DNA of 750 nt, taken from the NCBI RefSeq assembly GCF_003334255.1, contig NZ_QOWU01000193.1; one strand, written 5' to 3'. Both the position numbers and the translations under genes were made by a program. Under the pieces are notes generated by a model. The model was not told the origin of the DNA and did no database searches. It saw only the letters and a list, made by a program, of their open reading frames with translations. How positions within the stretch are numbered: the stretch's first letter is position 1; each line of letters starts with the position of its first letter. Shown in pieces: positions 1 through 750 of the stretch. The DNA is from Escherichia coli (lineage in GTDB: Bacteria > Pseudomonadota > Gammaproteobacteria > Enterobacterales > Enterobacteriaceae).

Positions 1-98
1 TAGCCGAAGGGGTCGACAGAACCACAATACGGGCAACACACTGTATTATGAGTAATCGCGTTTCCACAGTCCCTGCACTTCTTTTTGCGTATCACCAT
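1..98 (-). CDS. Candidate small zinc-ribbon protein (CxxC-x9-CCxxC), divergently oriented; C-terminal end at or beyond the left window edge
   Basis: Seen in sequence: reverse-complement ATG at 96-98, preceded on the - strand by AGGAGG (+ coords 104-109, 'cctcct') with a 5-nt spacer; frame open down to position 3 (32 codons: MVIRKKKCRDCGNAITHNTVCCPYCGSVDPFG). The next codon starts TA (positions 1-2) with its third base outside the window, so it is either a stop (giving a 32-aa protein) or Tyr. Four-Cys spacing C8-x2-C11-x9-C21C22-x2-C25 is typical of a zinc ribbon. Short and not verifiable by homology here, so moderate confidence. Confidence 0.45.
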   Translation of the reverse strand, partial: MVIRKKKCRDCGNAITHNTVCCPYCGSVDPFG

Positions 99-103
99 CA
101 CTC

Positions 104-109
104 CCTCCT
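104..109 (-). promoter_or_regulatory. Shine-Dalgarno (AGGAGG) for the - strand small ORF starting at 98
   Basis: + strand 'cctcct' at 104-109 is AGGAGG on the - strand, 5 nt upstream of the - strand ATG (96-98); seen directly. Confidence 0.5.
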
Positions 110-129
110 CACAGCCTTACCCGTAACCG

Positions 130-148
130 GTTTTTTACATTAAAAAAC
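130..148. repeat. Perfect AT-rich inverted repeat, 8-bp arms with 3-nt spacer (GTTTTTTA-CAT-TAAAAAAC); function unknown, candidate operator or promoter-associated site
   Basis: Seen in sequence: 130-137 'gtttttta' is the exact reverse complement of 141-148 'taaaaaac'; flanking bases (129 g / 149 g) do not extend the symmetry. Immediately adjacent to the palindrome AACCGGTT (125-132). Lies about 32 nt upstream of the - strand ORF start. Confidence is for the repeat itself, not for any function. Confidence 0.85.
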
Positions 149-268
149 GACGCTGAAAATTCAACCGTCAGTCCGGAGACGACCGTTCGGGTTATCACAG
201 AGTGCCTGAGACAGTGTCCTGCCGGAGGTCACTTCAGGGACTCTGCGTATTTTTTACGACGTGGCTAT

Positions 269-287
269 TCCGTATGAACCATACGGA
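269..287. repeat. Perfect inverted repeat, 8-bp arms with 3-nt spacer (TCCGTATG-AAC-CATACGGA), overlapping the Shine-Dalgarno of the + CDS; candidate operator or RBS-occluding hairpin
   Basis: Seen in sequence: 269-276 'tccgtatg' is the exact reverse complement of 280-287 'catacgga'; symmetry ends at 268/288. The right arm covers G285-G286-A287 of the GGAG Shine-Dalgarno; the element ends 9 nt before ATG 297. Confidence is for the repeat itself, not for any function. Confidence 0.85.
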
Positions 288-288
288 G
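285..288 (+). promoter_or_regulatory. Shine-Dalgarno (GGAG) for the + CDS starting at 297
   Basis: GGAG at 285-288, 8 nt upstream of ATG 297; seen directly. Confidence 0.6.
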
Positions 289-296
289 ATTTAACC

Positions 297-750
297 ATGA
301 CCTACAAATACAACCCCTTCTGGCAGCAACGTATTCGTGAGACGGTGCGGCACGCACTGAATGTTCATCCCCGCCTGACGGCATTGCGGGTTGACCTGCG
401 TCTCCCGGATGTACCGGCAGCAACGGACGCAGCTGTGATATCCCGCTTCATCAATGCCCTGAAAGCCCGAATCGACGCTTACCAGAAACGTAAGCATCGG
501 GAAGGTAAACGCGTGCATCCCACAACCCTGCATTACGTCTGGGCCCGGGAGTTTGGGGAGTGCAAAGGTAAAAAACACTATCACCTGATGCTGCTGGTCA
601 ACCGGGATACCTGGTGTCGTGCCGGTGATTACCGCGCTCCGGAGTCTCTGGCCGGGATGATTAAACAGGCGTGGTGCAGTGCCCTGGGAGTGGATGTCGG
701 GTGCCATGCCACGCTGGTGCATTTTCCGGCCTGGCCGGCGGTGTGGCTGG
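297..750 (+). CDS. Putative replication-initiator-like protein with HUH-type motif, YagK/YfjJ-like ('inovirus Gp2 family'-like); N-terminal 151 codons, 3' end beyond window
   Basis: Seen in sequence: ATG at 297-299 preceded by GGAG (285-288) with an 8-nt spacer; frame open from 297 to 750 with no stop (my own translation: MTYKYNPFWQQRIRETVRHALNVHPRLTALRVDLRLPDVPAATDAAVISRFINALKARIDAYQKRKHREGKRVHPTTLHYVWAREFGECKGKKHYHLMLLVNRDTWCRAGDYRAPESLAGMIKQAWCSALGVDVGCHATLVHFPAWPAVWL). Codon usage is enterobacterial-like (12 of 13 Leu are CTG, G/C-rich third positions). In-frame stop TGA at 207-209 bounds the 5' side, so 297 is the first ATG after the stop. Family assignment is from recollection of the YagK/YfjJ family plus the HUH-like motif at aa 94-101; not verified by any search. 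Confidence refers to this being a real CDS; the family call alone is about 0.5. Confidence 0.82.
   Translation, partial: MTYKYNPFWQQRIRETVRHALNVHPRLTALRVDLRLPDVPAATDAAVISRFINALKARIDAYQKRKHREGKRVHPTTLHYVWAREFGECKGKKHYHLMLLVNRDTWCRAGDYRAPESLAGMIKQAWCSALGVDVGCHATLVHFPAWPAVWL

Follow-up and report, generated by a model that had tools for sequence, protein, structure and literature searches.

Organization of the locus

The DNA analyzed here, hereafter the window, is a 750-nt stretch of island DNA that is 100% identical to many Escherichia coli chromosomes, e.g., that of ATCC 11775 (NZ_CP033092.2, 4154108-4154857). At least 80% of it is covered in one or more places in 3,478 of 5,426 complete genomes, and multiple copies per genome are common. 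The window holds the first part of a plus-strand gene, the beginning of a small divergent gene, the region between the two and, opposite the plus-strand gene, a minus-strand ORF (Table 1). Allelic comparisons were made on a set of seven copies, i.e., the window allele and six diverged copies with 88.6-97.7% DNA identity.

Table 1. Coordinates, strand and supporting evidence of the features in the 750-nt window
Feature	Position	Strand	Evidence or remark
Divergent small gene, first 32 codons (window 98..3)	1..98	-	RefSeq CDS, L001 7898-8098
Divergent intergenic region, small minus-strand gene to plus-strand CDS	99..296	.	Annotation and alignment
Perfect 8-bp inverted repeat TCCGTATG-AAC-CATACGGA	269..287	+	3' arm covers GGA of the Shine-Dalgarno sequence
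Shine-Dalgarno sequence GGAG	285..288	+	Direct reading; 8 nt 5' of ATG 297; invariant across seven copies
Start codon ATG	297..299	+	RefSeq start in all copies
CDS, first 151 of 189 codons	297..750	+	Stop-free translation, RefSeq, Pfam, PHROG, comparative
Antisense shadow ORF, 143 aa, non-gene	291..722	-	No family match; TGA at codon 26 in 6/6 diverged copies
E85 codon	549..551	+	Invariant in 60 homologues; probable third metal ligand by analogy
H94-Y95-H96 codons, HUH motif	576..584	+	H94 and H96 invariant in 60 homologues

As had been claimed in a first-pass annotation of this DNA, the plus-strand frame is free of stops from ATG 297 to the window end, and the downstream extension that it proposed as a check brought the frame to its stop at the window-equivalent position 866, 116 nt past the window end. 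In RefSeq, this is the CDS of WP_000221544.1 ("inovirus Gp2 family protein"), located at L001 8297-8866, which corresponds to window 297-866, and starting at the same ATG, while nothing is annotated on the minus strand opposite it. The gene is present at full length in over 3,400 of the complete E. coli genomes. The GGAG sequence, rightly described beforehand as a well-spaced Shine-Dalgarno, is invariant together with the start codon in the alignment of the seven copies. An alternative in-frame start at GTG 261, which would give a product of 201 aa, was rejected because in four of the copies (L002-L005) a 5-nt insertion (AACGA) lies between this codon and ATG 297 and breaks the frame from the GTG.

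The length of the open frame is by itself not significant in a window of this size (of 2000 mononucleotide shuffles, 120, or 6%, had 151 or more consecutive codons without a stop in at least one frame). Leucine is encoded by 12 CTG, one TTG and one CTC codons in the part of the frame inside the window, in agreement with the CTG-dominated usage reported in the first reading. The comparison of codon usage and third-position GC that it recommended was less conclusive: codon-usage log-likelihood favored the plus frame over the minus frame (0.20 versus 0.10 bits per codon), but GC3 was nearly the same in both (0.65 versus 0.64), so that composition parts the two frames weakly, and it is the homology and comparative evidence that is decisive. 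The CDS also contains an exact 10-nt direct repeat, GGCAGCAACG, at 322-331 and 416-425 (94 nt apart), a short family of two copies that most likely occurs by chance.

Genomic neighborhood

The divergent gene encodes a 66-aa product (WP_001297219.1, "hypothetical protein"; windowed translation MVIRKKKCRDCGNAITHNTVCCPYCGSVDPFG) whose cysteines form a CxxC...CxxC zinc-ribbon motif and whose C-terminal tail is hydrophobic. This gene, too, is missing from the ORF track of the window because it runs off the window end. In L003-L005 this small upstream gene is strongly diverged, while an identity to the window of approximately 93% or more is kept through the intergenic DNA and the first part of the Gp2 gene. 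Such an alignment suggests either that a recombination junction lies in or beside the small gene, or that the intergenic DNA is under constraint. Immediately downstream of the Gp2-family gene, two adjacent or overlapping zinc-ribbon genes (L001 9126-9949) were found in all copies examined, and this pair, the upstream zinc-ribbon gene and the Gp2-family gene make up a small conserved module. The island adjoins a tRNA-Leu gene and is rich in IS elements and pseudogenes; besides the fec operon, it has the well-known module of GTPase, Ag43, DUF932, antirestriction, RadC-like (JAB), DUF987, YeeU and CbtA genes, with genes for Hha and an HTH regulator as further neighbors. The 49 kb of flanking sequence that we examined has neither an annotated integrase nor any annotated inovirus gene.

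Upstream region and inverted repeats

A search of the window for consensus σ-70 promoters and for terminators found none, and there was no Rfam match at E ≤ 1. The perfect inverted repeat that reaches into the Shine-Dalgarno sequence folds as RNA with -15.2 kcal/mol (z = -4.17), a stability equaled by none of 200 shuffles. All seven copies have an identical CCGTATG/CATACGGA core, while four have a loop enlarged by a 5-nt insertion (AACGA), and because the stems never vary, covariation is silent either way on the hairpin. The repeat occurs once in the 49-kb island and is absent from the distant 243-aa paralogues. It is likely to be a putative 5'-UTR hairpin or operator, and may represent a candidate element for sequestering the ribosome-binding site or a protein-binding palindrome.

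The divergent intergenic region contains another perfect inverted repeat of 8 bp, which is AT-rich (GTTTTTTA-CAT-TAAAAAAC, 130-148) and less perfect in L003-L005. Two perfect 8-bp inverted repeats per 750 bases exceed what is seen in shuffled sequences, with a mean of 0.09 and two reached in 18 of 1000. Two of the 243-aa paralogues have an imperfect 15-nt inverted repeat of their own (L009 507-560 and L010 501-554; 87% complementary, 24-nt spacer), the 3' arm of which spans the paralogue's own start codon, and a third paralogue (L011) has no such repeat.

The minus-strand ORF

The mechanical lister used on the window has a default cut-off of 60 aa and leaves out ORFs that run off an end, and the 143-aa frame at 291..722 (-) was, as first reported, the only ORF that it gave. 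This also explains, along the lines already suspected, the absence of the plus-strand frame from the track, since that frame has no stop inside the window. The remarks made earlier on the minus-strand ORF held equally well: a 3-base AGG, in ...CCAGGCCGGAAA-ATG, is all that precedes its ATG at 722, where no 4-base Shine-Dalgarno is present, and the composition of its product is odd for a protein, with 0.7% K, 0% W, 10.5% G, 8.4% P and 8.4% Q.

In each of the six diverged copies, codon 26 of this ORF is the stop codon TGA. The stop arises because Ser117 of the plus-strand product is encoded by TCT in the window and by TCA in every diverged copy, a change that is synonymous in the plus frame. The ORF lies in the antisense frame in which codon position 2 faces position 2 of the plus strand, where stops are possible only opposite plus-strand TTA, CTA and TCA codons, and none of these three occurs in the whole gene of the window allele. 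The minus frame is therefore open in this allele because the CTG-rich gene lacks them, and for the same reason it extends at L001 8291-9160 (-) to 289 codons, spanning the entire plus-strand gene. In frame geometry, in the restriction of its stops and in its destruction by a single synonymous change, 291..722 (-) is a textbook case that does not differ from the known antisense shadow ORFs of GC-rich or CTG-biased genes.

The distribution of variable sites points in the same direction. The plus frame is uninterrupted in 7/7 copies, each time with a length of exactly 189 codons, and its variable columns fall at codon positions 1, 2 and 3 in the numbers 24, 18 and 60. Counted by the codons of the minus-strand ORF, they number 36, 10 and 12; as position 1 of this ORF faces position 3 of the plus strand, the peak at its own position 1 is the mirror pattern of a non-coding antisense frame. 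Amino acid divergence among copies of the plus-strand gene is appreciable, particularly in the C-terminal third. Neither a conserved frame, nor a third-position bias of its own, nor homologues were found for the minus-strand ORF, and its 143-aa product had no match in PHROGs, NCBIfam or Pfam, the last with the threshold relaxed to E ≤ 10. Nevertheless, the exact 143-aa sequence has been deposited as "Uncharacterised protein [Escherichia coli]" (e.g., CTU14253.1 and CTW04368.1), in a protein cluster of 16 members, compared with 3,421 in the cluster of the plus-strand product; several of the 16 are 95-aa versions truncated by the stop. These deposited proteins are likely annotation errors.

Family assignment of the plus-strand product

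Searches with both translations, as suggested in the first-pass annotation, gave the reverse of what would have favored the minus strand, with family matches for the plus-strand product alone. It matched Pfam PF11726 (YagK/YfjJ C-terminal domain) with E = 4.8e-48 and a score of 163.7, residues 21-187 aligning on positions 1-170 of the 170 in the model, which places it in this family. It also matched PHROG 25019 (E = 7.7e-41), and 691 relatives were found at E ≤ 1e-3 among 1.84 billion cluster representatives. The K-12 proteins YfjJ (CP4-57) and YagK (CP4-6) carry the same RefSeq name, and our product matches their family model end to end. Their islands are alike in setting, being tRNA-associated and carrying GTPase, Ag43, antirestriction, RadC-like and CbtA/YeeU genes. 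The subfamily described here differs from the E. coli paralogues in length (189 versus 243 aa) and has approximately 68% DNA identity to them over part of the gene.

The name "inovirus Gp2" derives from a weak and partial match to PF23343 (REP_ORF2-G2P; residues 59-128, E = 3.3e-5, model positions 19-61 of 99), in the region around the HUH motif where the product resembles the filamentous-phage gene II initiator. Similarity to G2P over the full length was not found, the PHROG replication-initiation family phrog_2969 was reached with E = 0.014 only, and gpII of the Ff phages is approximately twice as long. We therefore rejected the assignment as a true inovirus gene II protein despite the name, because the profile match is partial and the neighbors are island genes with no inovirus genes annotated alongside.

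The HUH-nuclease signature

In the HUH superfamily, two histidines and an acidic residue bind a metal, and a tyrosine forms a 5'-phosphotyrosine link with DNA. E85, H94, H96, W126, Y168 and K171 are invariant in 60 aligned full-length homologues that have 32-49% identity to the product. H94-Y-H96 forms an HUH motif, in which a hydrophobic residue stands between two histidines, within a predicted strand (93-102), and Y168-L-A-K171, the codons of whose Y168 and K171 lie past the window end, forms a YxxK motif with its tyrosine in a predicted helix (156-170), as expected for a catalytic tyrosine. This order, HUH followed by YxxK, is that of the Rep-class HUH endonucleases. The structure model is confident and has HUH Rep nucleases as its best structural matches, in agreement with the HUH fold of solved Rep nucleases, an antiparallel sheet with helices on its flanks, and E85 is by analogy the probable third metal ligand.

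Based on the invariant E85, H94/H96 and Y168/K171 and on the match of the model to HUH Rep nucleases, the product is most likely a single-tyrosine HUH DNA-nicking enzyme of its island. A divalent metal would be bound by H94 and H96, probably with E85 as a further ligand, and the tyrosine of the YxxK motif, Y168, would nick a single DNA strand and form a covalent bond with it. By analogy with Rep proteins, the nick could start the replication or the processing of the excised island; the nicking activity is, like the target DNA and any role in the life cycle of the island, inferred from these comparisons. The product has no detectable sequence similarity to any solved Rep of this class, to which SIRV1 ORF119, the parvovirus NS1/AAV Rep nuclease domains, plasmid pMV158 RepB and the Helitron Rep domain belong, and, unlike them, has no fused helicase or oligomerization domain and is encoded in a chromosomal island instead of a plasmid or virus.

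Discussion

Taken together, these results leave us highly confident that the minus-strand ORF is the shadow of the plus-strand frame, that this frame is the real, annotated gene, and that a small HUH endonuclease of the single-tyrosine type is its most likely product. The first reading, in which the listed ORF was taken for the antisense shadow of a true gene, is thus borne out by the RefSeq CDS, by the Pfam match and by the stops in every diverged copy. The opposite reading, with 291..722 (-) as the gene and the plus frame as its shadow, could draw on the 143 open codons of the minus frame in the window and the 289 in the genome of L001, on the few automated annotations of its product and on a codon-usage score that is slightly positive. 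We consider its probability negligible, and in fact it is already refuted by the comparative data, with the frame broken in 6/6 diverged copies and its variable columns peaking at its own codon position 1. In addition, it has neither a 4-base Shine-Dalgarno nor more than a trace of lysine, it has zero matches in the three family libraries, and the homology support for the plus-strand product is overwhelming. It is very improbable, too, that both strands code, i.e., that a lineage-specific antisense gene overlaps the plus-strand gene in the allele that has no TCA. The antisense frame of that allele is indeed fully open, and the exact 143-aa sequence is present on at least nine contigs; however, such openness is the direct result of the gene, CTG-biased as it is, having no TTA, CTA or TCA codon, and the ORF has no start-site signal, no homology and no conservation beyond near-identical copies.

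A different kind of doubt concerns the function of the plus-strand gene, which could survive as a nonfunctional remnant while the island decays, or could encode a DNA-binding protein with no nuclease role. The wealth of IS elements and pseudogenes around the gene, the lack of an annotated integrase in the 49 kb inspected and the amino acid divergence between copies, notably in the C-terminal third, would fit such an explanation, although it appears unlikely to us given that the frame is kept at the same length in seven of seven copies with an excess of change at third positions, and that the gene is full-length in thousands of genomes. Moreover, the putative catalytic residues are invariant down to 32% identity, which argues for retained chemistry in the family. 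A small HUH endonuclease thus remains the reading that we favor for the plus-strand product.

The gene itself is no discovery, as it is already annotated in thousands of RefSeq genomes, and its absence from the track is an ordinary gene-calling artifact. Its practical lesson is that an ORF track from which end-truncated ORFs are omitted will display shadows where the real genes should be.

As for the family, yfjJ and yagK of K-12 are still classed as uncharacterized, and the function of the family is undemonstrated (PMC11551758); we found no experimental work on it in the literature. In a preprint on genomic islands, a Gp2-like protein has been named among their likely core genes, with no function assigned (10.1101/2024.08.29.610337). 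A speculative proposal, to which we give a rather low probability, is that the YagK/YfjJ "Gp2" proteins form a clade of minimal HUH nickases (approximately 190 aa) that would initiate the replication or processing of a very widespread class of tRNA-integrated enterobacterial islands, with the hairpin TCCGTATG-N3/8-CATACGGA as the recognition or nick site or as an autoregulatory element. The wider interest of the locus lies outside the first reading, in the yfjJ/yagK family, which is experimentally uncharacterized, yet bears a clear HUH-nuclease signature and, according to published work, probably belongs to the core genes of mobile islands.
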